Program-made: the position numbers and the translations under genes
Shown: positions 1-28,303 of the stretch, piece after piece
How the letters are laid out: the number at the start of each line of letters is the position of its first letter
Position numbering within the stretch: position 1 is the stretch's first letter
Assembly (NCBI GenBank): GCA_016182085.1
Contig: JACOYB010000004.1
Coordinates: forward strand, 211,923-275,922
Source: Candidatus Magasanikiibacteriota bacterium
Lineage (GTDB): Bacteria; Patescibacteriota; Patescibacteriia; Magasanikbacterales; GWA2-37-8
DNA length: 64,000 nucleotides
Direction: 5' to 3'
The notes under the pieces: generated by a model
Seen by the model: only the letters and a program-made list of their open reading frames with translations
The model's database searches: none
What the model was told of the DNA's origin: nothing

Positions 1-614
1 GGATAGGGAAGTCCGATAAGTTTTGCGCCCTTATCAAAACATTCTCCGGCTGCGTCATCTATGGTCGCGCCTAGAAGCTTGTATTTACCATGATTTTTCA
101 TCAAAATAAGTTCCGTGTGCCCGCCGCTGACCACCAAACATAAAGCAGGAAATTGTATCTCCTTTTTGTCATTCTGAGGTTTTGCCGAAGAATCCCTTTT
201 GTACGACCGAGAGGGATCCTTCACATTGTTCAGGATGACATTGTCGAAATTTTTAATCTGTGTAGAATAAATATGTCCTTCAATGTGGTTTGTAGATACG
301 ATTGGCAAATCAGTTATATAAGATAAAGTTCGAGCAGCTTCTACGCCTACCAGTAATCCGGTAATAAGTCCGGGGCCAGAGGTGACGGCGATAGCGTCTG
401 GTTTTGGTTGGTTCTCAAGTACGGCTTCAATAAGCGGTACGATTTTTTCCGCGTGCATGCGGCCGGCAATTTCCGGCACCACGCCGCCATATTTTTTATG
501 AATATCAATTTGCGAAGCGGTTTTTTCGGATAAAACAAAACAACCCTTATCAGAGCAGTCCAGTAGAGCAACCGAAGTGTCATCGCAAGATGATTCAATA
601 CCGAGTATTAACAT
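1..614 (-). CDS. tsaD: tRNA N6-adenosine threonylcarbamoyltransferase TsaD (Kae1/Gcp), N-terminal part; 3' end lies beyond the window start
   Basis: Reverse-strand translation from the ATG at 614 reads MLILGIESSCDDTSVALL..., the TsaD N-terminus. The frame stays open to position 1. Confidence 0.85.
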   Translation of the reverse strand, partial: MLILGIESSCDDTSVALLDCSDKGCFVLSEKTASQIDIHKKYGGVVPEIAGRMHAEKIVPLIEAVLENQPKPDAIAVTSGPGLITGLLVGVEAARTLSYITDLPIVSTNHIEGHIYSTQIKNFDNVILNNVKDPSRSYKRDSSAKPQNDKKEIQFPALCLVVSGGHTELILMKNHGKYKLLGATIDDAAGECFDKGAKLIGLPY

Positions 615-618
615 ATCG

Positions 619-692
619 TGTCAGGGGAGAGATTCGAACTCTCGACCTCAGCGTTATGAATGCTGTGCTCTAACCAACTGAGCTACCCTGAC
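619..692 (-). tRNA. tRNA with CAT anticodon (elongator Met or lysidine-modified Ile2); no encoded CCA
   Basis: Reverse complement GTCAGGGTAGCTCAGTTGGTTAGAGCACAGCATTCATAACGCTGAGGTCGAGAGTTCGAATCTCTCCCCTGACA folds as a cloverleaf with a 7-bp acceptor stem GTCAGGG/CCCTGAC, D-arm, T-arm GAGAG/CTCTC and a TTCATAA anticodon loop. Confidence 0.8.
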
Positions 693-864
693 TTTTACTC
701 TACAATTAGAGATAATCATACTAAAAATACTCTTCAAAGTCAACCCTGTTAAATTCTTTTATTTACTTCTTATTTCCCTTATGTATAATACATATAGCCG
801 TGGCAGGTGCCTGTAGTTTACAGGCATAAACTACGTAACGCATGGCTAAAGAAAGCGAGGAGTT

Positions 865-1482
865 ATGCGCGTTCTTTTTATCGCCATAGGATTGGTTCTT
901 AGTTTGGTTGCAGGTTGTGGCCGCTTCTCGTACATGAATTTGCGCGAACCTATCTATCTGGTAACAGAGGATAGCTTCTTCGCAGGTTGTGAGAAAGATT
1001 GGCAGGGCCAGGAACAGTGTCGCGAGTGGCGTCGGGATCAAGTAAAGGCAGGCATTAGTCAGTGGTTCAGGTTTTTCACCAAGAAAACTAGACCCAAGGT
1101 GTACATTGTTGGGTCAACTAGTGAAATTCCAAACGGCATGATTAACCGGCCGATTCGTTTGCGAGTCCAGCCGGGTCTTTGCAAAGACCCTGATCCAGGT
1201 GAAGCGGGCGCTTGTTACAGGCAGAATTATTTTTGGTCGTCGCCAGAGATGGTATTTGATACAGAACAGCAGATCTTGCAAGCTATGGTAGCTCACGAGT
1301 TTGGTCACGCGCTTGGGCTGAACCATTATGAAAGAGCAGGCAAAGATCGCTCTGTTATGTCGGCGGGCGAAGTAGGCGACAATGTGGTCTGGGATGATAT
1401 AGAGCAGGTGTGTAGGGAACATAGGGAATGCCCGGTTTTGGCAGACGCGGAAGAGTACAAGAATGTTGGATTCGTATATTAG
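865..1482 (+). CDS. metzincin-type zinc metalloprotease lipoprotein; GC-rich relative to the host
   Basis: HEFGHALGLNH matches the HExxHxxGxxH zinc-binding signature. The N-terminus has a signal peptide with an LVAGC lipobox. RBS AAGCGAGGAG lies upstream. GC is about 50 %. Confidence 0.7.
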   Translation: MRVLFIAIGLVLSLVAGCGRFSYMNLREPIYLVTEDSFFAGCEKDWQGQEQCREWRRDQVKAGISQWFRFFTKKTRPKVYIVGSTSEIPNGMINRPIRLRVQPGLCKDPDPGEAGACYRQNYFWSSPEMVFDTEQQILQAMVAHEFGHALGLNHYERAGKDRSVMSAGEVGDNVVWDDIEQVCREHRECPVLADAEEYKNVGFVY

Positions 1483-1496
1483 CCCTTCAAGGACCG

Positions 1497-1521
1497 TTCG
1501 TTATCTTGGTCTCGCAATCTT
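1497..1521 (+). terminator. hairpin after the metalloprotease gene
   Basis: GTCTCGC aatcttcggaaa GCGAGAC stem-loop. Confidence 0.4.
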
Positions 1522-1579
1522 CGGAAAGCGAGACTTGTAGTTTTTATCAAATTTTTAAATGGGTATTTTGGGTAACTTA

Positions 1580-1608
1580 TTGACTTTTGCTTTAAAATAT
1601 AGTAGAAT
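1580..1608 (+). promoter_or_regulatory. sigma70-like promoter upstream of tRNA-Glu
   Basis: TTGACT, 17-nt spacer, TAGAAT. Confidence 0.45.
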
Positions 1609-1640
1609 ATTTTCACGTTTATAAAAATTTAGCTATACAC

Positions 1641-1713
1641 GGCCTCATCGTCTAATGGTTAGGACATTGCCCTTTCAAGGCGAAAATACGGGTTCAATTC
1701 CCGTTGGGGCTAC
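1641..1713 (+). tRNA. tRNA-Glu (TTC)
   Basis: GGCCTCATCGTCTAATGGTTAGGAC...CTTTCAA anticodon loop...GGGTTCAATTCCCGTTGGGGCTA. Typical tRNA-Glu D-arm; acceptor stem has G-U wobbles. Confidence 0.8.
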
Positions 1714-1723
1714 AAATCGAAAC

Positions 1724-1766
1724 ACCTTCATGCAAATGATGGTGTTTTCGTGTAAGGTTACAGGTG
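1724..1766. repeat. hairpin repeat (aacaccTtcatgCaaatgatggtgttttcgtgtaagGttacag), copy 1, directly 3' of tRNA-Glu
   Basis: Near-identical copy at 4274-4316. Contains the perfect inverted repeat AACACCATCAT-gtaa-ATGATGGTGTT. Confidence 0.7.
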
Positions 1767-1844
1767 TAGTTGTATATGTGGCTACAACTTGTTGCTAGTT
1801 AAGGTATATGTTATTCTTAATTTAAGATTTTTAATCAAAATTTT

Positions 1845-2405
1845 ATGAATATGCGCGAAAGAGGAGGTCGTAGACAGAATGAGGCGCAGATGATTAAGGC
1901 AGAAATGGATAGTGATAATGAGAAGCATAACCCAAGTTGGGAGGAGTTAGAGAAAGAGGATATTTTAACTAAGCAAAAGGCGGAAGAGGAAAAGTTAAAA
2001 ACTAAACAAATAGAAGAGCAAAAGATAGAGCGGGAGAAGTTGTTGATTAAACAATTTGAGCAGTTGATAAAAAAATATCTTCAGCTTGTCCAAAAGTATA
2101 AAGCTACAGGTGAAATAATTGATGATAAGTTAAAAGATGAATTAATCCAGGATAGCCAAAGTATTTATCAGCAACTACTGAAATCGAAAGGACTGTTTGG
2201 TTATAATGGGGATGAATTCCTTTCTCTTCTGGGAAGAGCTTATAAGAACGTGGCAAAGCCAACAGCAGATGAAAAAAATTCCATTCTTTTTGCAAGAAGA
2301 AAAGAATCTTCAACTACAGAAGATGAAAATATTATAATTGGCAGGTATGTTGATGAAGGAATGGATTTGTTCTATGGTGATGTGATAGTAGGCTTACCTC
2401 ATTGA
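1845..2405 (+). CDS. hypothetical Lys/Glu-rich coiled-coil protein; low GC; first cassette of the array
   Basis: 186-aa ORF with host-like composition, followed by 33-bp repeat copy 1. Confidence 0.45.
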   Translation: MNMRERGGRRQNEAQMIKAEMDSDNEKHNPSWEELEKEDILTKQKAEEEKLKTKQIEEQKIEREKLLIKQFEQLIKKYLQLVQKYKATGEIIDDKLKDELIQDSQSIYQQLLKSKGLFGYNGDEFLSLLGRAYKNVAKPTADEKNSILFARRKESSTTEDENIIIGRYVDEGMDLFYGDVIVGLPH

Positions 2406-2457
2406 TGCTACGTATTAATAAGCTGGAATGGTTTATTGTGACATTATTAGATAGCTA

Positions 2458-2493
2458 GAATAAAGTTTGCCAAGTGTCTCGATTAACCCTACG
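2458..2493 (+). repeat. 33-bp cassette-boundary direct repeat, copy 1 (AAAGTTTGCCAAGTGTCTCGATTAACCCTACGG)
   Basis: Five copies in the same orientation, at 2458, 4231, 4983, 5546 and 6284. Confidence 0.9.
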
Positions 2494-2496
2494 GAT

Positions 2497-2531
2497 AAAA
2501 AAGACTCCAAATTTATAGGAGTCTTTTTTAT
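2497..2531 (+). terminator. rho-independent terminator-like hairpin
   Basis: AAAAAAGACTCC aaatttat AGGAGTCTTTTTT. Confidence 0.6.
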
Positions 2532-2547
2532 TTTAAAATAAACAATT

Positions 2548-2576
2548 GACGTGTGTTTCTATGTATGTTTAAATTG
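2548..2576 (+). promoter_or_regulatory. sigma70-like promoter ahead of purB
   Basis: TTGACG, 17 nt, near-consensus -10 TTAAAT. RBS GAAAGAAGG sits before the ATG at 2642. Confidence 0.4.
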
Positions 2577-2641
2577 CCATAATTCTGGCCAAAAGCCAGG
2601 CAACAGATTTCAACCAAGCGTACATCGAAAGAAGGCTTGTT

Positions 2642-4081
2642 ATGTCGAGCGACACCTCCCGTTTCCGTCACCCGCTTACGACCCGCTACACCTCGGACGC
2701 CATGCAGGCGCTCTTCTCCGAGGACAAGAAGTTCATGACCTGGCACGACATCTGGATCGTGATCGCGCAGATCCAACAGGCCCTCGGGATCCCGATCACC
2801 GATGGGCAGATCGGCGAGATGGTGGCGGCACGTGGTCATATCAACTACCCGCTCGCTGCCCGTCTGGAGAAGGAGAAGAAGCACGACGTGGTGGCACATG
2901 CCGGGGCGTTCGGGGCGGATTGCCCCAATGCGCAGGCGATCATTCATTACGGCGCGACGAGCTGTGAGGTCACGGACAACGCTGACCTCATCATCATGCG
3001 GGAAGCGCTGGATCTGATCTGCGTTTCTATTGCCAAGGTGATCAACCGGCTGAGTCGCTTCGCTGTACAGTACAGCAGCCTGCCAACGTTGGGTTACACC
3101 CACTTCCAGGCTGCACAGCTCACCACCGTGGGCAAGCGTGCCTGCATGTGGCTGCAAGATCTCGTGATGGATCTCGCGGAACTGGAACGGCTTCGTGCCG
3201 GACTTCGTTTCCGGGGCGCCAAGGGTACCACTGGTACCCAGGCGAGCTTTCTCGAGATCTTTGATGGCAATCACAAGAAGGTGGAAGAACTCGAATCCCG
3301 CTTCGCGGCGGCGTTCGGTTTCAATCACATTTTCGCCATCACTGGTCAGACCTACACGCGTAAGCAGGACTCGGTCGTGTTCCATGCGCTCGCCTCGCTG
3401 GGTGCCACCATCCACAAGATGGCGACGGATCTTCGCCTCCTCGCCCACGAGAAGGAGATCGAAGAACCGTTCGACAAGGATCAGGTGGGCTCTAGTGCCA
3501 TGGCCTACAAGCGCAATCCGATGCGCTGCGAGCGTGCCTGCGGCCTGGCCGAACTGCTCATGAAGTACGGTGGTGTCGGCGTTCACATTCACGCTGATCA
3601 GTGGATGGAACGTACGCTAGATGACAGCGCCATTCGACGGATTGCCATCGCCGAAGCGTTCCTCCTCGCCGACGCGATCCTTATGATCATGCAGAACGTC
3701 TGCGAGGGGCTGGTCGTCTACCCCAAGGTCATCGCACGGAATATTCGGGAGGAGCTGCCATTCATGGCCACCGAGAACTTCATCGTCGCCATGGTGAAGA
3801 AGGGTGGCGATCGTGGGAAAGTCCACGAGCGGATTCGTGTCCACAGCCAAGCCGCTGCACGACGAGTGAAGGAAGAAGGGCTCGATAACAATCTCATCGA
3901 TCTCATCCGGGTTGATTCGTACTTCAGCCCAATCCATGACGAGCTCGATGAGCTCATGAATCCGATCACGTTCATCGGCCGCGCGGCGGAGCAGGTGGAT
4001 CAGTTCCTGGAGACCCAAGTGAACCCGGCCCTCAAGCCCTACCATCAATGTCTCGGCGGAGCTGCTCAGCTCAACGTCTGA
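2642..4081 (+). CDS. purB: adenylosuccinate lyase, eukaryote-like PurB/ADSL clade; very high GC and GC3
   Basis: Fumarate-lyase superfamily motifs [15 protein letters not shown] and [20 protein letters not shown]. Long collinear similarity to human ADSL and B. subtilis PurB. About 62 % GC, with third codon positions almost all G/C. Confidence 0.9.
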   Translation: [479 protein letters not shown]

Positions 4082-4128
4082 TCTGTTCAACTAGTTCGCT
4101 TCACCTAACCGTGGTGGGGTGATCTTTC

Positions 4129-4186
4129 GAGATCTCCCTACCACAGCTTTGTCTATAAAGTTTATGTATAAAGCTGTGGAGATCTC
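4129..4186 (+). repeat. attC-like imperfect palindrome with unpaired bases, copy 1
   Basis: GAGATCTCC[CTAC]CACAGCTTT ... AAAGCTGTGGAGATCTC. The arms are complementary except for 4-5 extra bases on the left arm. Near-identical copy at 5439-5497. Confidence 0.7.
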
Positions 4187-4197
4187 TTCATAATATT

Positions 4198-4222
4198 AAA
4201 AAACACTCATCAGAGTGTTTTT
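4198..4222 (+). terminator. terminator hairpin AAAAACACTCatcaGAGTGTTTTTT
   Basis: Perfect 7-bp stem followed by a T-run. Duplicate at 5508-5535. Confidence 0.6.
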
Positions 4223-4230
4223 TAATATAT

Positions 4231-4264
4231 AGAATAAAGTTTGCCAAGTGTCTCGATTAACCCC
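4231..4264 (+). repeat. 33-bp cassette-boundary repeat, copy 2
   Basis: aaagtttgccaagtgtctcgattaacccc. Confidence 0.9.
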
Positions 4265-4273
4265 ACCATTCCA

Positions 4274-4316
4274 AAACACCATCATGTAAATGATGGTGTT
4301 TTCGTGTAAGATTACA
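4274..4316. repeat. hairpin repeat, copy 2 (see 1724-1766)
   Basis: aacaccatcatgtaaatgatggtgttttcgtgtaagattacag. Confidence 0.7.
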
Positions 4317-4365
4317 GACGTAACGGGTTTGCTTAAATTTAAGATATTTTCAACTCACCGTGCAC

Positions 4366-4394
4366 TTGACATATATCTAAGATATATGTATAAT
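4366..4394 (+). promoter_or_regulatory. perfect-consensus sigma70 promoter
   Basis: TTGACA at 4366-4371, exactly 17 nt, TATAAT at 4389-4394. It drives the toxin-antitoxin pair. Confidence 0.6.
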
Positions 4395-4426
4395 ATATAT
4401 AGTTAAATTAACTAATTTATACAGTT

Positions 4427-4702
4427 ATGACTACGCAAGTAATCTTTAAAATCGATAAAGCTCTTAAAAATAAAGCCATGGCCAAGGCTCAGCGTGAGGG
4501 TATAGCCTTTGCTTCTGTTCTTAAGTTGGCCACGAAAGCCTTTGTTAATGGTGATCTGAACCTAGGTCTGGTTGGTAGTGAACAGTTTAATGTCACCAGC
4601 AATAGAGAAATAAAACAGGCTTTAAAAGATATTGCTAAAAATAAGAATCTTTCGTCAGGTTTTTCTTCAGTCAAAGAAGCTAGGAAGTTCTTAAAAGCGT
4701 AA
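4427..4702 (+). CDS. type II antitoxin, RelB/DinJ family
   Basis: 91-aa protein with DinJ-like N-terminal ribbon-helix-helix region (IDKALKNKAMAKAQREGIAFASVL). Sits 3 nt upstream of a RelE-family toxin gene. Confidence 0.7.
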   Translation: MTTQVIFKIDKALKNKAMAKAQREGIAFASVLKLATKAFVNGDLNLGLVGSEQFNVTSNREIKQALKDIAKNKNLSSGFSSVKEARKFLKA

Positions 4703-4705
4703 TGT

Positions 4706-4960
4706 ATGGAAGTAAAATTCCATAAAAATTTTAAGAAAAGGTTTAAAAAGATTCCTGTAAAAATACAGGAGCAGTTTTACCAACGGTTAGAAGTGTTTTT
4801 AACAGATAAATTTGATAAAACCTTGAATAATCATTCAGTGGGTAAAGCTTTTCCAGATTGTAAAAGCATCAATGTAAGTGGTGACTATCGAGCTATTTTC
4901 CAAGAACAAGGAGATGTGGCTATATTTCTTACCGTCGGCACTCATTCTGAGCTTTATTAA
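4706..4960 (+). CDS. type II toxin, RelE/ParE (YafQ-like) family
   Basis: 84 aa. The C-terminal YRAIFQEQGDVAIFLTVGTHSELY matches the RelE/ParE fold signature. Operon arrangement with the preceding antitoxin. Confidence 0.75.
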   Translation: MEVKFHKNFKKRFKKIPVKIQEQFYQRLEVFLTDKFDKTLNNHSVGKAFPDCKSINVSGDYRAIFQEQGDVAIFLTVGTHSELY

Positions 4961-4982
4961 TATTTAATTGGGCGTTTTGTTA

Positions 4983-5016
4983 AAAAGTTTGCCAAGTGTC
5001 TCGATTAACCCTACGG
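4983..5016 (+). repeat. 33-bp cassette-boundary repeat, copy 3
   Basis: aaaagtttgccaagtgtctcgattaaccctacgg. Confidence 0.9.
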
Positions 5017-5100
5017 CTTTAGAACATGTAGAACCCATGTCTCTGAACAAAAAAGCAACGCAAATAGCGACTGCCTTTTTGTTTTTTAAACATTAGGGTA
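5017..5100 (+). repeat. second repeat family (P-type unit), intact copy
   Basis: CTTTAGAACATGTAGAACCCATGTCTC | TGAACAAAAAAGCAACGCAAATAGCGACTGCCTTTTTGTTTTTTAAACATTAGGGTA. The left half recurs at 6311-6345 and the right half at 6714-6772. Confidence 0.7.
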
Positions 5101-5125
5101 GGGGGATGGGATCGGTATAAGTATA

Positions 5126-5154
5126 TTGACAGACGGGTTAAATAATGGTATAAT
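5126..5154 (+). promoter_or_regulatory. perfect-consensus sigma70 promoter plus palindromic operator-like site
   Basis: TTGACA at 5126-5131, 17 nt, TATAAT at 5149-5154. Followed by the palindrome GTCTGTttgACAGAC, then RBS AAAGGAGG. Confidence 0.6.
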
Positions 5155-5188
5155 TGCCGGTCTGTTTGACAGACAAAGGAGGTCTGCC

Positions 5189-5398
5189 GTGAAAGAGCGT
5201 AAGCATCGGATCATCATCAAGAACCTCGAGGTTACCAACGAGCTCGTGGCCCAGATGACCAAGGATGACCTCGGTCAGATCGAGCTCATCAGCTGGTCGG
5301 TCGAAGATGCCTTCCATTTCCACAGCAGAGTGGCCAACGGCGGTGACACTCTGTACTCGCAGAGTATCATCATTGTGTTGGTCACGTACAGGGACTAA
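5189..5398 (+). CDS. hypothetical small protein (69 aa) in a GC-rich cassette; GTG start
   Basis: Consensus RBS AAAGGAGG lies 6 nt before the GTG at 5189, in frame with the track ORF 5126..5398. About 58 % GC. No recognisable family. Confidence 0.45.
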   Translation: MKERKHRIIIKNLEVTNELVAQMTKDDLGQIELISWSVEDAFHFHSRVANGGDTLYSQSIIIVLVTYRD

Positions 5399-5438
5399 CG
5401 TAGGTCGCCGCATAAGTAGGTGGAGCAATCATCAGTAC

Positions 5439-5497
5439 GAGATCTCCCATCACAGCTATATTCATAATTATTTTATGTATAAAGCTGTGGAGATCTC
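5439..5497 (+). repeat. attC-like imperfect palindrome, copy 2
   Basis: GAGATCTCC[CATC]ACAGCT...AAAGCTGTGGAGATCTC. Confidence 0.7.
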
Positions 5498-5507
5498 TTC
5501 ATAATAT

Positions 5508-5535
5508 TAAAAAACACTCATTAGAGTGTTTTTTA
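5508..5535 (+). terminator. terminator hairpin AAAAACACTCattaGAGTGTTTTTT
   Basis: Duplicate of 4198-4222. Confidence 0.6.
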
Positions 5536-5545
5536 ATATCTGGAA

Positions 5546-5578
5546 AAAAGTTTCCCAAGTGTCTCGATTAACCCTACA
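5546..5578 (+). repeat. 33-bp cassette-boundary repeat, copy 4 (degenerate)
   Basis: aaaaagtttCccaagtgtctcgattaaccctacAc. Confidence 0.85.
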
Positions 5579-5582
5579 CTTT

Positions 5583-5612
5583 TCAAAATCCGCTAACCAT
5601 AGCGGATTTTGT
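5583..5612 (+). terminator. hairpin AAAATCCGCTaaccatAGCGGATTTT
   Basis: Perfect 10-bp stem flanked by T-runs. Confidence 0.5.
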
Positions 5613-5622
5613 GTTTATCATG

Positions 5623-5651
5623 TTGACATAGAGTGCAATTTATGCTATATT
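5623..5651 (+). promoter_or_regulatory. sigma70 promoter
   Basis: TTGACA, 17 nt, TATATT. Confidence 0.5.
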
Positions 5652-5869
5652 ATTTTGTTCTCCTTCGGAGAGCCTGTCTCTGTGTGGGACAGTCAGGGTA
5701 GCGCATAAAAATTTATAAAACAAAGCTATGAGTAGTAGGCCCCCTGTCTAATTAATTTGGGGCTAAGTAAACGAACTATTTTTGTTTGTAGAGCGTTGCC
5801 AAAACCATCAGAACAACCATCTACCCCCTAAGTTTGAAAACTCTGGGGACTTGCCGAATGAGGTGCGTC

Positions 5870-6178
5870 ATGATGTTTGCTCCATGTTACCTTGCGGACA
5901 AATTCGGTGGTGGATTCAACGCCACCGAGCAGGATCACTGGCTGGTCGTACGCGGCCTGCTCATCATGTGGATCCGGGATGCTAATCCCGAAGGGGATTG
6001 GTACCAGCATCTCTCTCGTGCGGTCAACGAGACGAACCGGGTTCTTCGGTTGCTGGGTGTTCCAGACCCCAAGAAGGCTCTCCGTCCGTCCGCCGAACTG
6101 TTCGGCCACTACCACAACGAGGTGTCCAAGCAGTGGGACTGGCTGTACCAGTTGGCCCCCAACGGCTGGGGTCGCTAA
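5870..6178 (+). CDS. hypothetical protein (103 aa) in a GC-rich cassette
   Basis: ORF in the 5834 frame. The most plausible start is ATG 5870, with GAGG 6 nt upstream. About 60 % GC. No recognisable family. Confidence 0.4.
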   Translation: MMFAPCYLADKFGGGFNATEQDHWLVVRGLLIMWIRDANPEGDWYQHLSRAVNETNRVLRLLGVPDPKKALRPSAELFGHYHNEVSKQWDWLYQLAPNGWGR

Positions 6179-6248
6179 AGACGACCGGTGATTGCCCGCA
6201 CCTTAATCTGGCAAGCGACCGAACGAGCGCCTCTCGTTCAATGAACAA

Positions 6249-6282
6249 AAGCAGTCTTTAAGAAAAGGCTGTTTTTGTTTTA
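6249..6282 (+). terminator. terminator-like hairpin
   Basis: AAAAGCAGTCTTTaagaaAAGGCTGTTTTTGTTTT. Confidence 0.45.
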
Positions 6283-6283
6283 A

Positions 6284-6318
6284 AAAAGTTTGCCACCTGA
6301 CTCGATTAACTCTGCGGC
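6284..6318 (+). repeat. 33-bp cassette-boundary repeat, copy 5 (degenerate)
   Basis: aaaaagtttgccaCCtgActcgattaacTctGcgg. Confidence 0.8.
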
Positions 6319-6409
6319 CTTAGGACATGTAGAATTCATCTTTCTAAAAAATGTATGATTGAATATTCCGGTAATTTCTGGTATTGTTTCTGTGTAATTA
6401 CCATTACAT

Positions 6410-6706
6410 ATGCAAAAAGATTTTAACTATTATAATAATAAAGTACTCGATTTTTATGATAAGAAAATTTTTCGTGTTCGTTTAAAAGTTACGAAGTATT
6501 TTTTAATGATAGTGGGCCCGTTTAGTTTGCTTTGGGGATTTTTTGATTTTATACAGCTTTTAGGAGATCGGGTTGCTCCCGAACATATTGCAGACAAAGA
6601 GAGTGATGTGATAATTCGGATTGGGACAGGCGCTGTACTCATCTTAATCTGGTTTATTTTTTTTGTTATCCTAGATAAGGATAAGTCTGAGACATACAGA
6701 CAGTAA
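6410..6706 (+). CDS. hypothetical small membrane protein (two predicted TM helices); low GC
   Basis: 98-aa ORF with two hydrophobic segments. It lies inside a disrupted P-type repeat unit. Confidence 0.45.
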   Translation: MQKDFNYYNNKVLDFYDKKIFRVRLKVTKYFLMIVGPFSLLWGFFDFIQLLGDRVAPEHIADKESDVIIRIGTGAVLILIWFIFFVILDKDKSETYRQ

Positions 6707-6713
6707 CAGGTGT

Positions 6714-6772
6714 GAACAAAAAAGCAGCGCAACAAGCGACTGTTCTTTTGTTTTAATCTAACATTAGGGTTC
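6714..6772 (+). repeat. right half of the P-type repeat unit
   Basis: tgaacaaaaaagcagcgcaacaagcgactgttcttttgttttaatctaacattagggtt matches 5043-5100. Confidence 0.7.
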
Positions 6773-6904
6773 TTTTTATTTATATTTTATAATTATTTTA
6801 TCTGTTCTCTAGGAAAATGGGGATAAGGTTGCATTTATACGGGAGTCTAGCCTGGCGTGGGGCAAAAAGCGTGCTATAATATAGAAAATTTATTTTTATA
6901 CTAT

Positions 6905-7576
6905 ATGACCATTCTGATAATTGAAGATGAAAAAGATATAATAAAATTTTTAAAGCCCGGTTTGGAAGCCGAATGTTTTGCGGTAGATGTGGCCGAAGAC
7001 GGGGAAAAGGGATTGTTGTGCGCTTTATCCAAAGAGTATGATGTGATAATTTTAGATAACAACCTGCCTAAAAAATCAGGCCAGGAAGTTTGCGAGGAAT
7101 TACGGGCAAATAAAAAAACGACCCCCATCATTATGCTGTCGGTTCTTTCGGATGTAGATAAAAAAGTTGAACTGCTCAATACCGGAGCCGATGATTATTT
7201 AACCAAGCCTTTTTCTTTTCAAGAGTTGCTTGCCAGAATTAGAAGCCTTTTGCGCCGTCCCAAAAAAATAGAGGATGAAATTTTACGTATAGATGATTTG
7301 GAGTTAGATTCAAGACGTAATACGGTAAAACGAGGCGGTGAGGAAATTAGTCTGACGCGCAAGCAATTTATGCTCTTGGAGTATTTGATGCGTAATGCGG
7401 GTATGGTGCTGACGCGGGGGATGATTATGGAGCATGTCTGGGAAATGGATGCTGATCCGTTTTCTAACACCATTGAGACTCATATTTTGAGCTTGCGTAA
7501 AAAAATAAAAAATGCAAATAAGCCGCGCGAGTTTATTCAAACGGTGCCAGGCAGAGGGTATAAGCTAGAGGCGTAG
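6905..7576 (+). CDS. OmpR/PhoB-family response regulator
   Basis: Receiver domain (MTILIIEDE...D..LDNNLP...TTPIIMLS) plus winged-helix trans_reg_C domain (LTRKQFMLLEYL...VPGRGYKL). Extended -10 TGcTATAAT lies upstream. Confidence 0.85.
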   Translation: MTILIIEDEKDIIKFLKPGLEAECFAVDVAEDGEKGLLCALSKEYDVIILDNNLPKKSGQEVCEELRANKKTTPIIMLSVLSDVDKKVELLNTGADDYLTKPFSFQELLARIRSLLRRPKKIEDEILRIDDLELDSRRNTVKRGGEEISLTRKQFMLLEYLMRNAGMVLTRGMIMEHVWEMDADPFSNTIETHILSLRKKIKNANKPREFIQTVPGRGYKLEA

Positions 7577-7781
7577 AAATCTTCATTAAATTTTATTTTT
7601 ATTTTATCTATACTTTAATTTTTTTTATAAAAAACTTTAGAATAATTTTAAATTTATTTTTCCTTCGTTAGATTATAATAAAGCTTATCTAGTCTGTTCC
7701 TGCTCTGCCGCTCTTTTAAAATTCAAGATGGAGAAGGGGTGACATAGTAGCAGGATGGGATCGTGATAAAGGGAGGACATC

Positions 7782-11631: not shown

Positions 11632-12165
11632 ATGAATTTTCCATTAAGACAAAAAATAACAATTCTACTTGCCAGCTTATTGCTGGTGGTTTTTTTAATT
11701 CCGTATATTGCCAGGGCCCAGACAACCACCGGCGATTTACCGCCAACTTCGGCCCCTTCTAGTGCGGCTGCCACATATAGTCCCGCAGCGCCTGTAAGCA
11801 GCGACATGTCTCCGGTTTACATTAGTTTATTACAAAATTTAATCACCTTTGGGGAAAGTACGGGGTTGGGTTCCACCGATCCAAGATTAATTGTGGCGCG
11901 CCTTATCCGGTTGGCTATGGGATTTGTAGGTATTATAGTCCTTGTAATGATACTCCTAAGCGGACTTGCAATGATGACTTCGGGCGGAGATGAAGAAAAG
12001 GTAAGCAGCGCCAAGAAAACATTTTTTAATGCTATTATCGGACTTGTGATTATGCTTTCGGCATATAGTATCGTGGTGTTTGTTTTTAATGCCATAACTG
12101 GCGCCAGCGGTGGCAGTAGTGCTGTTGAAGCTCCAACTACGCCAGATCCGGTGGTTAACCCCTAG
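11632..12165 (+). CDS. secreted two-TM protein, possible VirB2/TrbC-like pilin
   Basis: Signal peptide, Pro/Ser/Ala-rich segment, then two hydrophobic helices (LAMGFVGIIVLVMILLSGLAMM and AIIGLVIMLSAYSIVVFVF). This is the usual T4SS pilin architecture. Confidence 0.35.
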   Translation: MNFPLRQKITILLASLLLVVFLIPYIARAQTTTGDLPPTSAPSSAAATYSPAAPVSSDMSPVYISLLQNLITFGESTGLGSTDPRLIVARLIRLAMGFVGIIVLVMILLSGLAMMTSGGDEEKVSSAKKTFFNAIIGLVIMLSAYSIVVFVFNAITGASGGSSAVEAPTTPDPVVNP

Positions 12166-19142: not shown

Positions 19143-19246
19143 AAAATTAAACCTTAAACTGAAAGACGGCGACCCCGTCTTTCTTGATTTTTTACCCTAA
19201 GTTCGGTAACATAAATGAATAAAATTGTTTTTATATGGGCTCAGCT

Positions 19247-22200
19247 ATGAAAAAGTACGACCCGAAAAAAATTGAAAAAAAGTGGCAAACTTATTGGGCT
19301 AAAAATAAGACTTTTGAAGTTAAAGAAGATAAGAAGAAAGAAAAATTTTATTCACTCATAGAATTCCCTTACCCAAGCGGAGAAGGACTTCATGTTGGCC
19401 ACCCGCGTCCATTTACGGCCATGGACGTAATTTCTCGTAAAAAAAGAATGGAAGGCAAAAATGTTTTATTCCCAATTGGTTTTGATGCGTTTGGACTGCC
19501 TACCGAAAATTTTGCCATTAAAACCGGCAAGCCGCCGGCCGAAGTAACCAAAAAAAATATTGCCAATTTTACGCGCCAACTCAAGATGTTGGGCTTTAGC
19601 TTTGATTGGTCTCGTGCTGTTGATACTACCGACCCAAATTATTATAAATGGACGCAAGAGATTTTTTTACAATTTTTCAAACATGGACTTGCTTACAAAA
19701 AAAACCAACCGATAAATTGGTGTCCAAAAGATAAAATCGGTCTGGCTAACGAAGAAGTAGTAAACGGAAATTGTGAGCGTTGTGGTACGGCCGTGGAAAA
19801 AAGAAATAAGGAACAGTGGATGCTGGCGATTACCAAATATGCGGATAAACTTTTACAAGGATTAAAAAATGTAGATTATATTGAGCGAGCCAGATTGCAG
19901 CAAGAGAATTGGATCGGCAAAAGCGAAGGTGCGCTGGTTCGTTTTTCGGTTGTCATTCCCGCCAAAGCGGGAATCCAGACAATTCAATCGGACGCTGGAT
20001 TCCCGATCAAGTCGGGAATGACAACGGTTGAAGTATTTACTACCCGCCCAGATACAATTTTTGGAGCTACTTTTTTGGCTATCTCTCCGGAGTTGGCCAA
20101 GAGTTGGTTAGAAGTGGGTTGGCAGGCTAGCGAAGAAGTTAAAAAATATATAACTCAAGCGCTGGAAGCTCGAAGCGCGGCCACTACTCGCGAAGAGCAA
20201 GAAAAAACAGGTATTAGCGCTGGTATTGTAGCCATTAATCCAGTTTCCAAAAAAGAAATTCCAGTTTGGATTACCAATTATGTAATGGGCGAAGTCGGTA
20301 CAGGCGCGATTATGGGTGTGCCGGCACACGATGAGCGTGATTTTGATTTTGCCAAGAAGTTTGGTTTGCCAGTTAAGCAAGTGGTTATGCAAAATATTGT
20401 GGTGGCAGGCGCTGCCGCACCACGAGATAATAAGGGTTTAATACAACGTAAAGTAGTTACAGGTATTATTCGCAATCCAAAAAATGATTCTTTTTTACTT
20501 TTACGACGCGCAGATAAAGAAAGTTCTTTTGTCGGTGGTACCATTGAAGATGGAGAGGATGCTATTGCAGCATTACGTCGTGAAATTGTAGAGGAAACTG
20601 GATATACAGATTTTGAAATTAAAAATACTGTTTTTCCTAATTTTTTTGGTAATGGTTATAAATTACGCGTTGATAAAAATTGCCTTGATTTTGAATATTT
20701 TTATGCGGTTGAATTAAATAGCGAACTTCACCAAGAGGTCAGTAAGGAAGAAATGGCAAAGCACGAGCCATTTTGGGTACCACGTGCGGATGTGTCTAAA
20801 ACAGTCACGCTTACAACGCATCAATACATGTGGAATCTTTATCAAGAAAATAAATACTGCTTCTCTGAAGATGGTATTGCTGTAAGTTCTGATTTTTTAA
20901 ATGGATTAAAAACACCGGAGGCCAAAGAAAAAATGATTAGCTGGCTTGAAGAACATAAGATAGGCAAAAAACAAATAAATTATAAATTGCGCGATTGGGT
21001 ATTTTCTCGCCAGCGTTATTGGGGTGAGCCTATCCCATTGGTATATTGTGAACATTGTAAAAATAAAAAACAGAAAGCTTTATTAATTCATGGTTTTGAA
21101 GCTACTGGAGATAGTAATTGGTTACCGTGGATGAAAATAGAATTAGAAAAACAAGGCTTTGAAGTAATGGTGCCAGCTCTGCCGGATAGTAGTCATCCTG
21201 ATCTTGGAAAATGGCTAGCAGTGTTGCAGCCGTATTTTGATAAATTGGGAGAAAATGATGTTATTGTTGGCCATAGTCTTGGCAGCAAAGCAGCCTTGCA
21301 CCTGCTAGAGACAAGTAAAAAGAAAATTGGTCATGTTTATTTAGTTGCTTCGGCTATTGGGCTTTTGGAGGAGCGGGATTGGAGTAAATTTGAACGCGAA
21401 TGGAAAGGGTCTGATGTAAAAGCGTTGCAAAAATTTTGGGAGAAGCCAGTTAAGTGGGAAGCGGTGGAAAAGTCAGTTGGTAATAAAAATTTAATTTTAT
21501 CTTCTGATGATCCATACATTAAAAAAGAAACTCATAAAAATTTGCCACCAGGATGGTTTTATCAGTTATGGTCTGGCTTTGGTCATTTCCAGCAAAAACA
21601 AATTCCTGAATTGTTAAATTTAATTTTGCAGAGTAAAAACACTGGCTGGGTACCTCTTCCCGAAAGTGAATTGCCGCTCAAACTTCCAAAAGTAGAAAAG
21701 TATCAGCCTACCGATACAGGCGAATCTCCGTTGGCGGCAATGGAAAAATGGGTAAAAACTAAATGTCCAAATTGTGGTGGCCCGGCCAAACGAGAAACAG
21801 ATACCATGCCAAATTGGGCCGGCTCAAGCTGGTATTTTTTGGCGTATGCGATGGGTGGGAAAAAAAGATTAAAAGAAAAAGGCGATAAATTTTGGGATAA
21901 AGAAATGCTAAAACATTGGCAACCGGTAGATTGGTACAATGGGGGAATGGAGCATACAGTTTTGCATTTGCTCTACTCTCGTTTTTGGAATCAATTTTTG
22001 TATGATATTGGCATGGTGCCAACACCGGAGCCATACGCCAAACGCACTTCGCACGGCATGATTCTGGCCAAAGGCGGAGAAAAGATGAGTAAATCGCGCG
22101 GCAATGTGGTAAACCCGGATGAGATGGTAGAACAGTTTGGCGCCGATGCTTTGCGTACCTATATTATGTTTATGGGTCCGTTTGATCAGGCGGTAGAGTG

Positions 22201-22765
22201 GGATACAAATGGGTTGGTGGGAGTAAAAAGATTTTTGGATAAAGTTTGGCGTTTAGGGAATAGGATCGGGGAGCATAAATTAGATCATCCTTGGGCAATG
22301 CATAAAACAATAGCTGCCGTTTCTGCAAGAATTGACAGTATGAGTTTTAATACCGCCATTTCAGAAATGATGGTTTATGCAAATTTATTAGAAAATCATT
22401 TAGGAGAAAATAAAGAGAATGGCACAGTTTCTCGTGAGGCAGTTGAAGCACTTGTGCTGCTTTTATCACCTTTTGCTCCACACTTATGTGAGCAAATATG
22501 GAGCCAGCTTGGTCATGAAAAAAGTATTGCCTTTGAAAAATGGCCAGAAGCTAATCAGGAAGAGTTAGAAAAAAAACAGAATATTAATTTGGCCGTGCAA
22601 GTAAACGGTAAATTACGTGACACTGTAACTGCTTGGTCCGATATTTCAGAGGAAGAAGCAAAGAAAGCGGCACTCGCTAGTGAAAAAATCCAAAAGTGGC
22701 TGGAAGGCAAAGAGCCGAAAAAAGTTATTTATGTAAAAGGCAAGTTAGTGAGTATCGTGGTTTAG
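19247..22765 (+). CDS. leuS: leucyl-tRNA synthetase with embedded Nudix and YdeN/RBBP9-type hydrolase domains and one in-frame palindromic element
   Basis: HIGH motif (HVGHPR), CP1 editing-domain motifs (TTRPDTIFGATFLAISPE), KMSKS (KMSKSRGN) and the anticodon-binding region are all present. One uninterrupted ORF of about 1170 aa (from 19235/19247), versus about 800-860 aa in typical LeuS. See findings. Confidence 0.9.
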   Translation: MKKYDPKKIEKKWQTYWAKNKTFEVKEDKKKEKFYSLIEFPYPSGEGLHVGHPRPFTAMDVISRKKRMEGKNVLFPIGFDAFGLPTENFAIKTGKPPAEVTKKNIANFTRQLKMLGFSFDWSRAVDTTDPNYYKWTQEIFLQFFKHGLAYKKNQPINWCPKDKIGLANEEVVNGNCERCGTAVEKRNKEQWMLAITKYADKLLQGLKNVDYIERARLQQENWIGKSEGALVRFSVVIPAKAGIQTIQSDAGFPIKSGMTTVEVFTTRPDTIFGATFLAISPELAKSWLEVGWQASEEVKKYITQALEARSAATTREEQEKTGISAGIVAINPVSKKEIPVWITNYVMGEVGTGAIMGVPAHDERDFDFAKKFGLPVKQVVMQNIVVAGAAAPRDNKGLIQRKVVTGIIRNPKNDSFLLLRRADKESSFVGGTIEDGEDAIAALRREIVEETGYTDFEIKNTVFPNFFGNGYKLRVDKNCLDFEYFYAVELNSELHQEVSKEEMAKHEPFWVPRADVSKTVTLTTHQYMWNLYQENKYCFSEDGIAVSSDFLNGLKTPEAKEKMISWLEEHKIGKKQINYKLRDWVFSRQRYWGEPIPLVYCEHCKNKKQKALLIHGFEATGDSNWLPWMKIELEKQGFEVMVPALPDSSHPDLGKWLAVLQPYFDKLGENDVIVGHSLGSKAALHLLETSKKKIGHVYLVASAIGLLEERDWSKFEREWKGSDVKALQKFWEKPVKWEAVEKSVGNKNLILSSDDPYIKKETHKNLPPGWFYQLWSGFGHFQQKQIPELLNLILQSKNTGWVPLPESELPLKLPKVEKYQPTDTGESPLAAMEKWVKTKCPNCGGPAKRETDTMPNWAGSSWYFLAYAMGGKKRLKEKGDKFWDKEMLKHWQPVDWYNGGMEHTVLHLLYSRFWNQFLYDIGMVPTPEPYAKRTSHGMILAKGGEKMSKSRGNVVNPDEMVEQFGADALRTYIMFMGPFDQAVEWDTNGLVGVKRFLDKVWRLGNRIGEHKLDHPWAMHKTIAAVSARIDSMSFNTAISEMMVYANLLENHLGENKENGTVSREAVEALVLLLSPFAPHLCEQIWSQLGHEKSIAFEKWPEANQEELEKKQNINLAVQVNGKLRDTVTAWSDISEEEAKKAALASEKIQKWLEGKEPKKVIYVKGKLVSIVV
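19952..20022. repeat. GTCATTCCCGC-family palindromic element, copy A, in-frame in leuS
   Basis: GTCATTCCCGccaaagCGGGAATCCAG...CTGGATTCCCGatcaagtCGGGAATGAC encodes VIPAKAGIQTIQSDAGFPIKSGMTT. Confidence 0.85.
20400..20830 (+). other. Nudix hydrolase domain embedded in LeuS
   Basis: The Nudix box GX5EX7REUXEEXGU is matched exactly by G TIEDG E DAIAALR RE I V EE T G Y. It lies between the editing domain and the NYKLRDWVFSRQRYWGEPIP motif. Confidence 0.7.
21060..21640 (+). other. YdeN/RBBP9-family alpha/beta serine hydrolase domain embedded in LeuS
   Basis: LLIHGFEATGDSNWLPWMKIELEKQGFEV...VIVGHSLGSKAALHLLE...GFGHF resembles B. subtilis YdeN (HWFPWLKK...AHSLG...GGHF). It is inserted between the zinc-knuckle cysteines CEHC and CPNCGG. 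Confidence 0.65.
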
Positions 22766-26848: not shown

Positions 26849-27420
26849 GCTATAATTTGGCCGCTGCTGTGTATGATGAAAATGAAAATTATTTAAATAG
26901 TTTTGAACAAGGTGAGCTTATTCCTTTGCTTGGCGCTCTGGCTGACAAGAAGATTTTGGATGTTGGGGCTGGTACGGGCCGCCTATCCTTGCCCTTGGCA
27001 AATAGGGGGGCAAAAGTCACCGCTTTAGATGTCTCGTCCAACATGTTAGATTTAATAAAGAAAAAAAATAGTAAAATTGAAATTATTGTAGGTGATGCGG
27101 AAAGCCTGCCTTTTGAAGATAATACATTTGATATTGTGACGGCCGCATTTTTAATTGTGCATCTCAAAAACCCAACCAGATTTTTTGATGAAGCGTATAG
27201 AATCTTAAAAGACGGAGGGATTTTGGCGGTGACCAACATTAATCAGAAGGATCCGCCGCAAGTAAAAACAAAACAAGGTAATATTATAATTGAATCTTTT
27301 TATCATCGTCCGGAAAAAATAATAGAAATATTAAAATCGTTGGCTTTTAGCATTGCAGAAAATATTTTTGTAAAGGAAAAAGAGCTTTGGATAAATCAAG
27401 TTGTGGTGGCGAGAAAGTAA
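26812..27420 (+). CDS. class I SAM-dependent methyltransferase
   Basis: Motif I ILDVGAGTGRLSLPLA and post-I acidic residue (ALDVS). Overlaps the comEC 3' end. Confidence 0.7.
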   Translation: MAKKAKVLSSEIGYNLAAAVYDENENYLNSFEQGELIPLLGALADKKILDVGAGTGRLSLPLANRGAKVTALDVSSNMLDLIKKKNSKIEIIVGDAESLPFEDNTFDIVTAAFLIVHLKNPTRFFDEAYRILKDGGILAVTNINQKDPPQVKTKQGNIIIESFYHRPEKIIEILKSLAFSIAENIFVKEKELWINQVVVARK

Positions 27421-27423
27421 AAT

Positions 27424-27490
27424 AAAAACACATCCTCCTTCCCATGTTTACAAAATTTTATAAAAATGGGAAGGCCGAAGGATGTGTGTT
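27424..27490. terminator. long bidirectional hairpin (CACATCCTCCTTCCCATG...CATGGGAAGGCCGAAGGATGTG)
   Basis: Duplicated at 27991-28052. Confidence 0.5.
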
Positions 27491-27508
27491 TGTCCGGCGG
27501 CCTGCACG

Positions 27509-27850: not shown

Positions 27851-27899
27851 CTATGGGTGCTCCTTATCAGGAATTTAACATAATTTTAAATATAAATCA

Positions 27900-28259: not shown

Positions 28260-28303
28260 GTTTCCTCCTAAAAAGAATTTAACATAACTAAAATTTTAAA
28301 TCA

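Follow-up and report, generated by a model that had tools for sequence, protein, structure and literature searches.

A bulged hairpin and terminator behind unrelated genes, and a separate 33-nt junction repeat, in a gene array beside tRNA-Glu of a Candidatus Magasanikbacteria genome

INTRODUCTION

Phage morons are autonomous units of promoter, gene and terminator with a deviant base composition, and the pdif modules of Acinetobacter plasmids are gene modules bounded by XerC/D-type sites whose recombinase acts in trans. Among the stem-loops that stabilise or process the 3' ends of mRNAs are REP/BIME elements, ERIC elements and RNase III sites whose internal loops are asymmetric, T7 R1.1 for example. 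Here we describe a locus that resembles each of these in part, in a 64,000-nt stretch (contig JACOYB010000004.1; 'the window' below means this whole stretch) of a ~40% GC metagenome-assembled genome (MAG) labelled Candidatus Magasanikbacteria at NCBI, with a gene content typical for candidate-phyla bacteria. Between a tRNA-Glu gene and a response regulator gene lies an array of small gene cassettes, two of which end in a bulged hairpin, an intrinsic terminator and a 33-nt repeat. On balance we lean towards the view that the hairpin is a sense-strand RNA stem-loop of the 3' untranslated region (UTR), which together with the terminator forms a portable 3'-end module separate from the repeat.

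The attC sites of integrons carry the core RYYYAAC/GTTRRRY in the R box (R'' + R'), in which the AAC triplet is the point of strand exchange; two or three single extrahelical bases lie near L'', a 6-bp stem separating the first from the last; between the R and L boxes each arm has a central spacer of ~5-6 nt that stays unpaired; and it is the bottom strand, the complement of the cassette coding strand, that is recombinogenic (PMC5027507). The window hairpin shares with attC an imperfect fold of similar length at the 3' end of a cassette gene, unpaired bases on one arm and a structure kept more than its loop sequence, and the array around it likewise consists of small accessory genes that include a toxin-antitoxin pair. 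The cargo of Prochlorococcus tycheposons accretes beside tRNAs (bioRxiv 10.1101/2020.12.28.424599). As there, the variable region described here starts at a tRNA, its recombinase-free cargo is divided by short att-type separators, and turnover is highest by the tRNA. The separators differ, however, in being not partial tRNA copies but a 33-nt motif with no more than CTAC(AA) in common with the tRNA end, the units are single small genes, and no integrase-bearing element was seen in the arrays sampled.

With pdif modules the locus has in common small modules, often toxin-antitoxin, a conserved boundary site of ~30 bp and the lack of a recombinase gene inside; its sites differ in being all direct, in a dyad limited to GTT...AAC, in their tRNA anchor and in not lying on plasmids. 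Like morons, the GC-rich open reading frames (ORFs) of the array each have their own promoter and terminator and a deviant composition, and occupy different loci in related genomes, but they lie in a bacterial chromosome and not in a prophage, with AT-rich flanks and ORFs that are GC-rich even between 75%-identical copies. The hairpin resembles stem-loops of the REP/BIME, ERIC and T7 R1.1 types in being a long sense-strand 3' structure of ~25 bp with an asymmetric bulge behind unrelated genes; it differs from them in its very low copy number, its conserved lower stem, its lack of an Rfam match and its tie to the GC-rich units of one clade.

RESULTS

Two cassettes end in the same bulged hairpin and terminator

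The structured elements of the two cassette ends, all on the + strand, are as follows.

4129..4186, + strand: bulged hairpin copy 1, whose lower stem GAGATCTC(C) has 8-9 bp and whose upper stem has 10-16 bp, with a 5' bulge of 5 nt and an AT-rich loop (folding, pair counts, covariance-model match of 80 bits, E = 1e-19)
5439..5497, + strand: bulged hairpin copy 2, with a 4-nt bulge (folding, pair counts, covariance model 69 bits, E = 1.4e-16)
4198..4223, + strand: intrinsic terminator copy 1, AAAAAACACTC-ATCA-GAGTGTTTTTT, common to copy 2 and to the ORF116 module in the related loci L030 and L006
5509..5534, + strand: intrinsic terminator copy 2, AAAAAACACTC-loop-GAGTGTTTTTT
4102..4116, + strand: tentative mini-hairpin P1, CACC...GGTG, weakly supported by RNAalifold on a 5-sequence alignment

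A reading made from the sequence alone (the sequence-only reading) had taken the segments 4129-4264 and 5439-5578 to be about 90% identical, each with a palindrome, a terminator and the 33-nt repeat in that order, and to carry 4-5 unpaired bases on the left arm of the palindrome only. We measured a global identity of 124/141 (88%), found all three parts in each segment, and on folding saw the unpaired bases where they had been placed. Identity is spread unevenly: the left arm and loop agree at 73.5% of positions, the part that runs from the right arm to the end of the repeat at 94.3%, and the sequence before the hairpin at ~54%, which means that it is unrelated. We attribute the likeness of the two copies from the loop rightwards to recombination or gene conversion among cassettes in the recent past. 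Copy 1 reads GAGATCTCC-CTAC-CACAGCTTT...AAAGCTGTGGAGATCTC and copy 2 GAGATCTCC-CATC-ACAGCT...AGCTGTGGAGATCTC, giving hairpins of 58-59 nt with a 4-5-nt bulge on the 5' arm of the + strand. Since GAGATCTC is an 8-bp palindrome by itself, the outer arms repeat one another in direct as well as in inverted orientation. GTGG(T/A)G, which precedes the main hairpin, is kept in all lineages. At 4198-4223 and 5509-5534 a stem-loop is followed by a U-tract on the transcribed strand, as in an intrinsic terminator, which a simple consensus scan had not listed.

Both strands of both copies fold as single-stranded DNA. The hairpins alone reach -9.4 to -15.9 kcal/mol (z = -4.6 to -7.2) and the whole module z = -8.3 to -11.3, with 0/200 shuffles folding as well, so the objection that no stable single-strand hairpin forms does not hold. 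We scanned the 64 kb for the same architecture (lower stem of at least 8 bp, one-sided bulge of 3-6 nt, upper stem of at least 8 bp), which returned the bulged hairpin family, one other hairpin pair and one weak match in a coding region (37067-37130). An Rfam search of the whole window gave only the two tRNAs above the gathering threshold, and at E up to 5 over 1600-6900 the rest fell far below it. Two right-arm hairpin patterns gave chance matches in coding DNA of viral contigs, none with a partner arm, and BLAST of 4100-4330 against plasmids and phages found no match.

A second hairpin pair in the window, 27428-27487 and 27994-28050, combines a lower stem of 9 bp (ACACATCCT/AGGATGTGT) with an upper stem of 9-14 bp and a bulge of 4 nt on one side. 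We considered this pair as a distant family member (model R1, 31.7 bits) and did not use it as evidence, its strand being ambiguous and its position within a local duplication.

Homologous hairpins covary and favour the sense strand

Related contigs and loci are labelled L002-L160. In these candidate-phyla genomes and the window, homologous hairpins stand behind three unrelated ORFs: behind purB in the window and behind a 75%-identical purB homologue (L025-L027); behind ORF69 in the window; and behind ORF116 in L030-L033, L006 and L154-L156, whose arrays, like that of the window, include the ORF102 cassette. By BLAST, the purB and ORF116 modules are homologous over 4129-4230 only, that is, the hairpin and the terminator. 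No 33-nt repeat follows the ORF116 module in L030, which argues that the 140-bp module is a hairpin-terminator unit juxtaposed with a junction repeat. The sequence-only reading had itself named, as what would undo it, the possibility that the module is simply the 3' UTR of a duplicated gene. This is essentially what we found, with the twist that the same 3' module follows unrelated genes. Downstream of two purB homologues examined in GC-rich genomes, the next gene follows directly with no hairpin.

Across five distinct sequences, pairing is kept in 96% of 124 alignment cells, compared with 34-58% in slid-alignment controls. Six pairs of the upper stem have changed on both sides (A-U, U-A and C-G occur at one position), and the covariation score of 0.304 exceeds the 0.168 of shuffles and was reached by 0/500 of them. 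RNAalifold independently recovers the hairpin, the terminator and the weak upstream mini-hairpin. The lower stem GAGATCTCC/GGAGATCTC is nearly invariant across lineages; of the bulge, size and side are kept and the sequence is not (CCTAC, CCAT, CCCAC, CTTGT).

The changes in the stems also distinguish the strands. Every standard pair other than Watson-Crick is a G·U of the sense strand (12 cells, 6 pair positions), and A·C cells are absent from the alignment; one G·U is kept in 4/5 sequences and a further U·G occurs in L154. RNA folding favours the sense over the antisense strand in all lineages, by margins of 0.5-13 kcal/mol, with energies (sense, antisense) of -26.3 and -21.1 kcal/mol for W1, -26.2 and -25.7 for W2, -33.4 and -20.1 for L025, -28.7 and -18.0 for L030 and -27.7 and -16.0 for L006. 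With DNA parameters the top strand is equal to or better than the bottom strand. The hairpin always lies 31-47 nt past a stop codon and 11-14 nt before the terminator stem, on the strand of the gene. Compensatory and G·U changes inside a transcription unit, as expected of a structured sense-strand 3'-UTR RNA, are thus present in 5-6 sequences. Together, the strand bias of the G·U pairs, the sense-strand fold energies and the place between stop codon and terminator suggest that the hairpin is a sense-strand RNA stem-loop in the 3' UTR.

We also considered a riboswitch-like pairing of the upstream GGTGGTGGGG with the bulge and left arm. This pairing is perfect in L025 and good in window copy 1; it is absent behind ORF69 and ORF116, and we therefore regard it as lineage-specific and set it aside.

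A 33-nt repeat marks the cassette junctions

The 33-nt repeat has five direct copies in the window, where 0.00 are expected. These, with the tRNA gene that anchors them, are listed here.

1641..1713, + strand: tRNA-Glu(UUC), proximal anchor of the variable array, found by ARAGORN and Rfam, ending in ...GGGGCTAC|A
1716..1768, + strand: native-type post-tRNA-Glu sequence, a terminator hairpin AAACACC..GGTGTTT plus GGTTACAG, with a second copy at 4274-4322
2462..2492, + strand: repeat copy 1 (AAAGTTTGCCAAGTGTCTCGATTAACCCTAC), at the end of the ORF186 cassette, nhmmer E = 1.4e-13, no hairpin before it
4236..4266, + strand: repeat copy 2, followed by native post-tRNA-Glu sequence, an attR-like junction
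4984..5014, + strand: repeat copy 3, starting 24 nt past the toxin stop codon, no hairpin before it
5547..5577, + strand: repeat copy 4, found by pattern scan and profile
6285..6315, + strand: repeat copy 5, degenerate, no hairpin before it

The copies bound five units, namely ORF186, purB, a ParE/RelE toxin-antitoxin pair, a 69-aa ORF and a 102-aa ORF, and the bulged hairpin is present in only two of these five repeat-terminated cassettes. An exact-pattern scan found the repeat in other candidate-phyla MAGs and in groundwater metagenomes, and returned 0 matches in viral contigs. A profile search found arrays of 2-4 repeats downstream of the same tRNA-Glu in other genomes. A tRNA-Met(-)/tRNA-Glu(+) pair precedes the repeat arrays in L004, L005, L007, L008, L009 and L016, and the short contig L017 shows tRNA-Glu only. 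Cargo of these arrays includes Schlafen/AlbA_2, amidase, IrrE-like M78, TauE, NHL-repeat and TerC proteins. In most cassettes the stop codon is followed within 5-25 nt by the repeat and then by a terminator, which leaves no room for a hairpin, and none is present.

The repeat ends in CTAC(A), as does the tRNA gene (...GGGGCTACA), and the sequence that follows the repeat's CTAC equals the sequence natively found after the CTAC of the tRNA (in L005 the shared sequence is AATCATGAAAAGCATCC...). In the window, 4274-4322 is 90% identical to 1720-1768 (repeat family D10), and 4275-4332 matches, at 91.5% identity, the sequence with which L004 continues directly behind its tRNA-Glu. L007, the closest relative, follows the window at 93.4% identity over 249-1715, that is, up to 2 nt past the tRNA-Glu end, and then continues into a different, unrelated cassette. 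Direct att-core repeats with one at the tRNA, and native flank after the distal repeat, as expected of a tRNA-anchored integration array, are thus found in both the window and L005. This is the pattern that site-specific insertion with a crossover at or near CTAC(A) would leave. Because most cassettes lack the hairpin, and because breaks fall at the repeat or at the tRNA end, the junctions are marked by the 33-nt repeat and not by the bulged hairpin.

The repeat was itself considered as an attC or dif-like site, given its GTTTGCC start and GATTAAC end. Read directly, though, it has no hairpin potential, no complementary GTTAATC lies past the downstream terminator, and its dyad symmetry is limited to GTT...AAC; we rejected both readings.

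In L010, L015 and L021, which are Saccharibacteria-labelled and metagenome contigs, the repeat takes the form GTTT(G/T)CCAGTTGTCTCGATTAACT(C/T)CACA and is preceded by ~35 conserved nt (GATTTTGTAYAAAATACCAATAYATCTG.CCAAT.AGG), so that the conserved site there spans ~65-70 nt. This may be a longer recombination site, or else a small RNA under a promoter of its own.

Self-contained GC-rich units turn over between fixed flanks

Between tRNA-Glu and the response regulator, the window holds the following units.

Up to 2462..2492: ORF186 cassette, ending at repeat copy 1, without a bulged hairpin before the repeat
2546..2599, + strand: purB cassette promoter (promoter scan, 9/12 match) with the 5'-terminal stem-loop CTGGC-CAAAA-GCCAG at 2585-2599
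2642..4081, + strand: adenylosuccinate lyase gene purB (Pfam Lyase_1, ADSL_C), 59% GC, G+C at third codon positions (GC3) 0.75
4366..4960, + strand: toxin-antitoxin cassette, in which a 12/12 promoter (4366-4394) precedes a 91-aa antitoxin candidate (4427-4702) and a ParE/RelE toxin (4706-4960), no bulged hairpin
5126..5398, + strand: ORF69 cassette, in which a 12/12 promoter (5126-5154) is followed by the 5' stem-loop GTCTG-TTTGA-CAGAC (5160-5174), a Shine-Dalgarno sequence and a 69-aa ORF (5189-5398), GC3 0.79
5623..6178, + strand: ORF102 cassette, in which a promoter (5623-5651) is followed by a 5' stem-loop (5660-5672) and the ORF (5870-6178), GC3 0.72
6410..6706, + strand: ORF98 (98 aa), the last variable unit, after repeat copy 5 and before the response regulator
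6857-7576: conserved response regulator, the distal array edge, in a response-regulator/histidine-kinase pair that starts at 6857

The suggestion that this is a cassette array was borne out: closely related genomes hold differing gene sets between the same tRNA-Glu and the same response regulator, and the 33-nt repeat lies at the cassette boundaries. Three units have promoters that match TTGACA-17-TATAAT at 12/12, 12/12 and 11/12 positions, and the stem-loops directly after the -10 element covary between homologues (CTCC..GAGAG, GTCCTC..GAGGAC, GTCC..GGAC). Both the purB promoter and its 5' stem-loop are kept in L025 upstream of the 75%-identical purB. Most unit ORFs have a GC3 of 0.70-0.83 (0.72-0.79 for purB, ORF69 and ORF102; 0.50 for ORF116), compared with ~0.40 in native genes, and by this measure they are foreign. 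The best outside relatives of purB, ~62% identical, are from Planctomycetes and of the eukaryote type of adenylosuccinate lyase; at 59% GC in a ~40% GC genome, the gene was acquired horizontally. For ORF69 an exhaustive search found distant small-protein homologues (E 2e-8 to 1e-4) that a word-index search and exact look-ups of alternative starts did not, and ORF116 is an orphan of the candidate-phyla clade. The 3' hairpin of ORF102 is of another kind (GAACGAG..CTCGTTC) and is followed by a terminator; homologous units occur in L030 and L006 in the same array and in L160 at another locus.

Several further observations concern these units. The window and L025 copies of purB (2642-4081 and 2697-4136) are 75% identical overall and 56% identical at third codon positions, and both retain a GC3 of 0.75-0.78 within AT-rich homologous flanks. 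In L160 (assembly GCA_964619625.1, that of the closest relative), an ORF102 unit and two GC-rich mini-gene units lie at 5650-7750 between uvrC and rpsA, each with its own promoter, 5' stem-loop and 3' hairpins and without a 33-nt repeat. Their presence at another locus without the repeat indicates that units of promoter, ORF, hairpin and terminator move independently of the tRNA-Glu array. Far from that array in the window, 51102-51551 (- strand) is a GC-rich orphan ORF (ORF149, 149 aa, GC3 0.83) with its own TTGACA/TATAAT promoter, a long leader, the 3' hairpin TTGACCGCCT..AGGCGGTCAA and an AT-rich terminator. Within the array, the sequence after repeat copy 3 (5010-5100) is contiguous, and its counterpart after copy 5 (6311-6342 and 6713-6770) is split by ~370 bp that contain ORF98, so that ORF98 looks like an insertion into a shared cassette 5' segment, or else the other copy has a deletion.

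Recombinase genes

Pfam searches of nearly all window ORFs of at least 100 aa (a 2540-aa ORF was left out) found no tyrosine or serine recombinase. Over 62 kb to the right no integrase is present, nor over ~6 kb to the left in the 93%-identical relative, where the flank holds DnaE, TsaD, tRNA-Met and a metalloprotease. A cognate recombinase for the 33-nt repeat was found neither in the window nor in the cargo of L002-L009 and L030, and domain scans of window proteins showed no HUH, reverse-transcriptase or transposase genes nearby. An enzyme that acts on the repeat in trans and is encoded elsewhere is likely.

In the more distant relative L025, a large serine recombinase (Resolvase, Recombinase, Zn_ribbon_recom) at 357-1646 (- strand) is divergent from an ORF153 unit and the purB unit; it is the only recombinase seen near any unit.

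The hairpin lacks the diagnostic features of attC

The sequence-only reading had seen an attC-like site in the one-sided unpaired bases at the cassette end. We compared the hairpin with attC feature by feature. Its foot is GAGATCTC(C)/GGAGATCTC in all lineages, with no AAC/GTT at or beside it and hence no RYYYAAC/GTTRRRY core. In place of spaced single extrahelical bases there is a single contiguous bulge of 4-5 nt between two uninterrupted stems. The 3' arm is continuous and only the 5' arm has unpaired bases, so there is no central spacer on two arms. The top (coding) strand is favoured, with G·U cells there numbering 12 and A·C cells 0; the bottom strand, which is the recombinogenic one in attC, is less stable and would carry C·A mismatches.

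The surroundings depart from an integron as well. Instead of an attC on every cassette of a mostly promoterless array, the hairpin is found on two of the five repeat-terminated cassettes and is missing from most cassettes elsewhere, and units have their own promoters. The array lacks intI, attI and Pc beside it, with no intI among the window ORFs scanned or in the relative's left flank. In L030 the module stands without the junction repeat, and breakpoints of cassettes fall at the repeat or the tRNA end. The likeness that remains is that the hairpin is stable on both DNA strands, lies at gene 3' ends in a true cassette array, keeps the presence and size of a one-arm bulge and not its sequence, falls at 55-60 nt within the attC length range (PMC5027507), and would have a purine-rich bulge on the bottom strand (GTAGG, ATGG, GTGGG, ACAAG), as attC bottom strands do (PMC5027507). 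One-sided unpaired bases in a hairpin at a cassette end are, as a caution, not enough to call an attC site.

Other features of the window

In the local segmental duplication at 27210-28350, 27210-27493 corresponds to 27929-28057 and 27871-27944 to 28275-28348. The duplication joins the beginning of a metallo-beta-lactamase-fold gene onto the 3' end of a methyltransferase gene in a chimeric 65-aa ORF (27900-28097), and brackets two minus-strand ORFs (27509-27850 and ~28100-28260). A REP/RPE-like palindromic family, GTTGTCATTCCCGC..GCGGGAATCCAG..GGGAATGACAA, has copies at 19949-20024, 33504-33567, 42545-42583, 58113-58188 and 63552-63590. One copy lies inside the 1176-aa leucyl-tRNA synthetase ORF (19235-22765), where it may be an in-frame insertion; this synthetase also has NUDIX and serine-hydrolase (alpha/beta hydrolase) domains inserted after the editing domain. 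Type IV secretion/conjugation-like genes lie at 11632-12165 and 57556-60799 (a type IV secretion pilin, a PrgI-family protein and a VirB4/TraG-type ATPase), and the ComEC competence gene at 25274-26848.

DISCUSSION

The 140-bp module consists of three separable parts placed end to end, and we think it rather more probable than otherwise that the first of them, the bulged hairpin, is an RNA stem-loop of the sense strand. It would act in the 3' UTR of the upstream gene, whose transcript the terminator would end, and with that terminator 11-14 nt downstream would form a portable 3'-end module. What the comparison shows is the structure with its conservation and covariation, the bias between strands, the place within the transcription unit, the separability from the repeat and the turnover of cassettes at the tRNA; RNA as the acting molecule, and stability or processing as its role, we infer. 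A duplex of ~25 bp with an asymmetric bulge is compatible with a barrier to 3' exonucleases that stabilises the mRNA, or with a site of RNase III-type processing or protein recognition, and so the hairpin may protect or process the mRNA 3' end. The module would be attached to self-contained, horizontally acquired GC-rich units that run from a consensus promoter through a 5'-terminal stem-loop and an ORF to a 3' hairpin and terminator; the stem-loops after the -10 element fit transcripts built for stability. The 33-nt repeat, in turn, would be a DNA-level att-like junction of the array beside tRNA-Glu, with its crossover at or near CTAC(A).

Several points weigh against the RNA reading of the hairpin. 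The 5-6 distinct sequences come from 3-4 lineages of one clade, and with so few sequences the covariation statistics are modest. G·T is the most tolerated DNA mismatch, so a role for the top strand as single-stranded DNA is conceivable. Hardly any variation is seen in the lower stem GAGATCTC and in the 3' flank GTGGAGATCTCTT, a constancy that a simple exonuclease barrier would not need. The invariant stem and its CTCTT flank suggest that something recognises the sequence, and near-invariance of this kind points to sequence-specific recognition by some protein; being self-palindromic, GAGATCTC would also suit a dimer that binds double-stranded DNA. Both the GC-to-AT shift and the BLAST homology start at the hairpin foot in three independent gene contexts, and this shared start could reflect a DNA joining event at the hairpin. 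Finally, the hairpin is found only behind some GC-rich units, and ORF102 and ORF149 have other 3' hairpins.

The main alternative, which we regard as unlikely, is that the hairpin is a by-product of the terminal repeats of a selfish palindrome of the REP/ERIC/MITE kind that lands in 3' untranslated regions and does nothing for the host gene. Conserved, inverted termini (GAGATCTC) around a variable, AT-rich interior would be expected of such an element, as would its presence behind unrelated genes and the signs of conversion between copies, and the window does hold another palindromic family, GTCATTCCCGC..GCGGGAATGAC, with at least five copies. Palindromes of this type have many dispersed copies of either orientation, terminal inverted repeats and target duplications; the bulged hairpin has two copies in 64 kb and one per related 8-kb locus, with uniform orientation and placement between stop codon and terminator and no visible target-site duplication, and its covarying stems and strand-specific wobbles indicate selection on the folded sense strand.

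We give little credence to a second alternative, in which the hairpin marks the acquisition of a gene and not its expression. A structure-directed nuclease or a replicative step (for instance HUH-type or template switching) would then have attached foreign GC-rich DNA to the foot of a hairpin-terminator that was already present, leaving a capture scar or landing pad. The onset of homology and of the GC-to-AT shift at the hairpin's first base, in all three gene contexts, is what this would produce, and units do move without the 33-nt repeat, as the ORF102 unit between uvrC and rpsA in L160 illustrates. Against it stand the lack of HUH, reverse-transcriptase or transposase genes nearby, the use of different 3' hairpins by other GC-rich units, and the weakly conserved GTGG(T/A)G and mini-hairpin, which suggest that the module boundary may precede the hairpin.

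An operator in double-stranded DNA, at which a dimeric regulator or a partition-like protein binds two GAGATCTC boxes spaced by ~50 bp or five helical turns, seems to us hardly probable. It would account for the self-complementarity of the boxes and for their near-constancy across all lineages beside a variable inner stem, and the boxes are not restriction targets under selection, since AGATCT is not avoided (restriction-site avoidance was considered and rejected, with 17 sites observed and ~10 expected). A spacer would have no need of compensatory, wobble-biased changes in the inner stem, though, and in the ORF116 lineage the left palindrome GAGGTCTC loses its own dyad and yet keeps its pairing with the right arm through G·U; the site also lies at gene ends and not at promoters. 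Least probable of all, given the foot, bulge, strand and distribution described above, is an attC-like, structure-specific site for single-stranded DNA recombination at which an integron-type integrase encoded elsewhere inserts and excises cassettes.

The hairpin, on the preferred reading, is one conserved and covarying piece of the standard expression kit of these units. The array anchored at tRNA-Glu, delimited by the 33-nt repeat and without a recombinase in cis, is conserved across the candidate-phyla clade and is more notable than the hairpin. Our search for literature on integrons or cassette arrays in Patescibacteria/Parcubacteria found nothing relevant, and no description of the tRNA-Glu array in the searchable literature. 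A bolder proposal, which we put forward as speculative and improbable in its entirety, is that the region downstream of tRNA-Glu is a previously undescribed cassette platform of Magasanikbacteria-like candidate phyla, an analogue of integrons and pdif modules in which a recombinase acting in trans would exchange cassettes at the 33-nt site, and in which the hairpin-terminator would be a portable 3' module joined at its foot to captured GC-rich ORFs by a structure-directed step.

The genomes of candidate-phyla bacteria are tiny, and little is understood of the ways in which they acquire genes. The conserved hot spot beside tRNA-Glu is a place where single-gene units turn over between genomes with a 93%-identical flank, and the units that do so include a purine-salvage gene of planctomycete/eukaryote type, a toxin-antitoxin pair and GC-rich orphans. 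If the 33-nt repeat proves to be a recombination site served by an enzyme acting in trans, it would represent a new way of building cassette arrays outside the integron paradigm.

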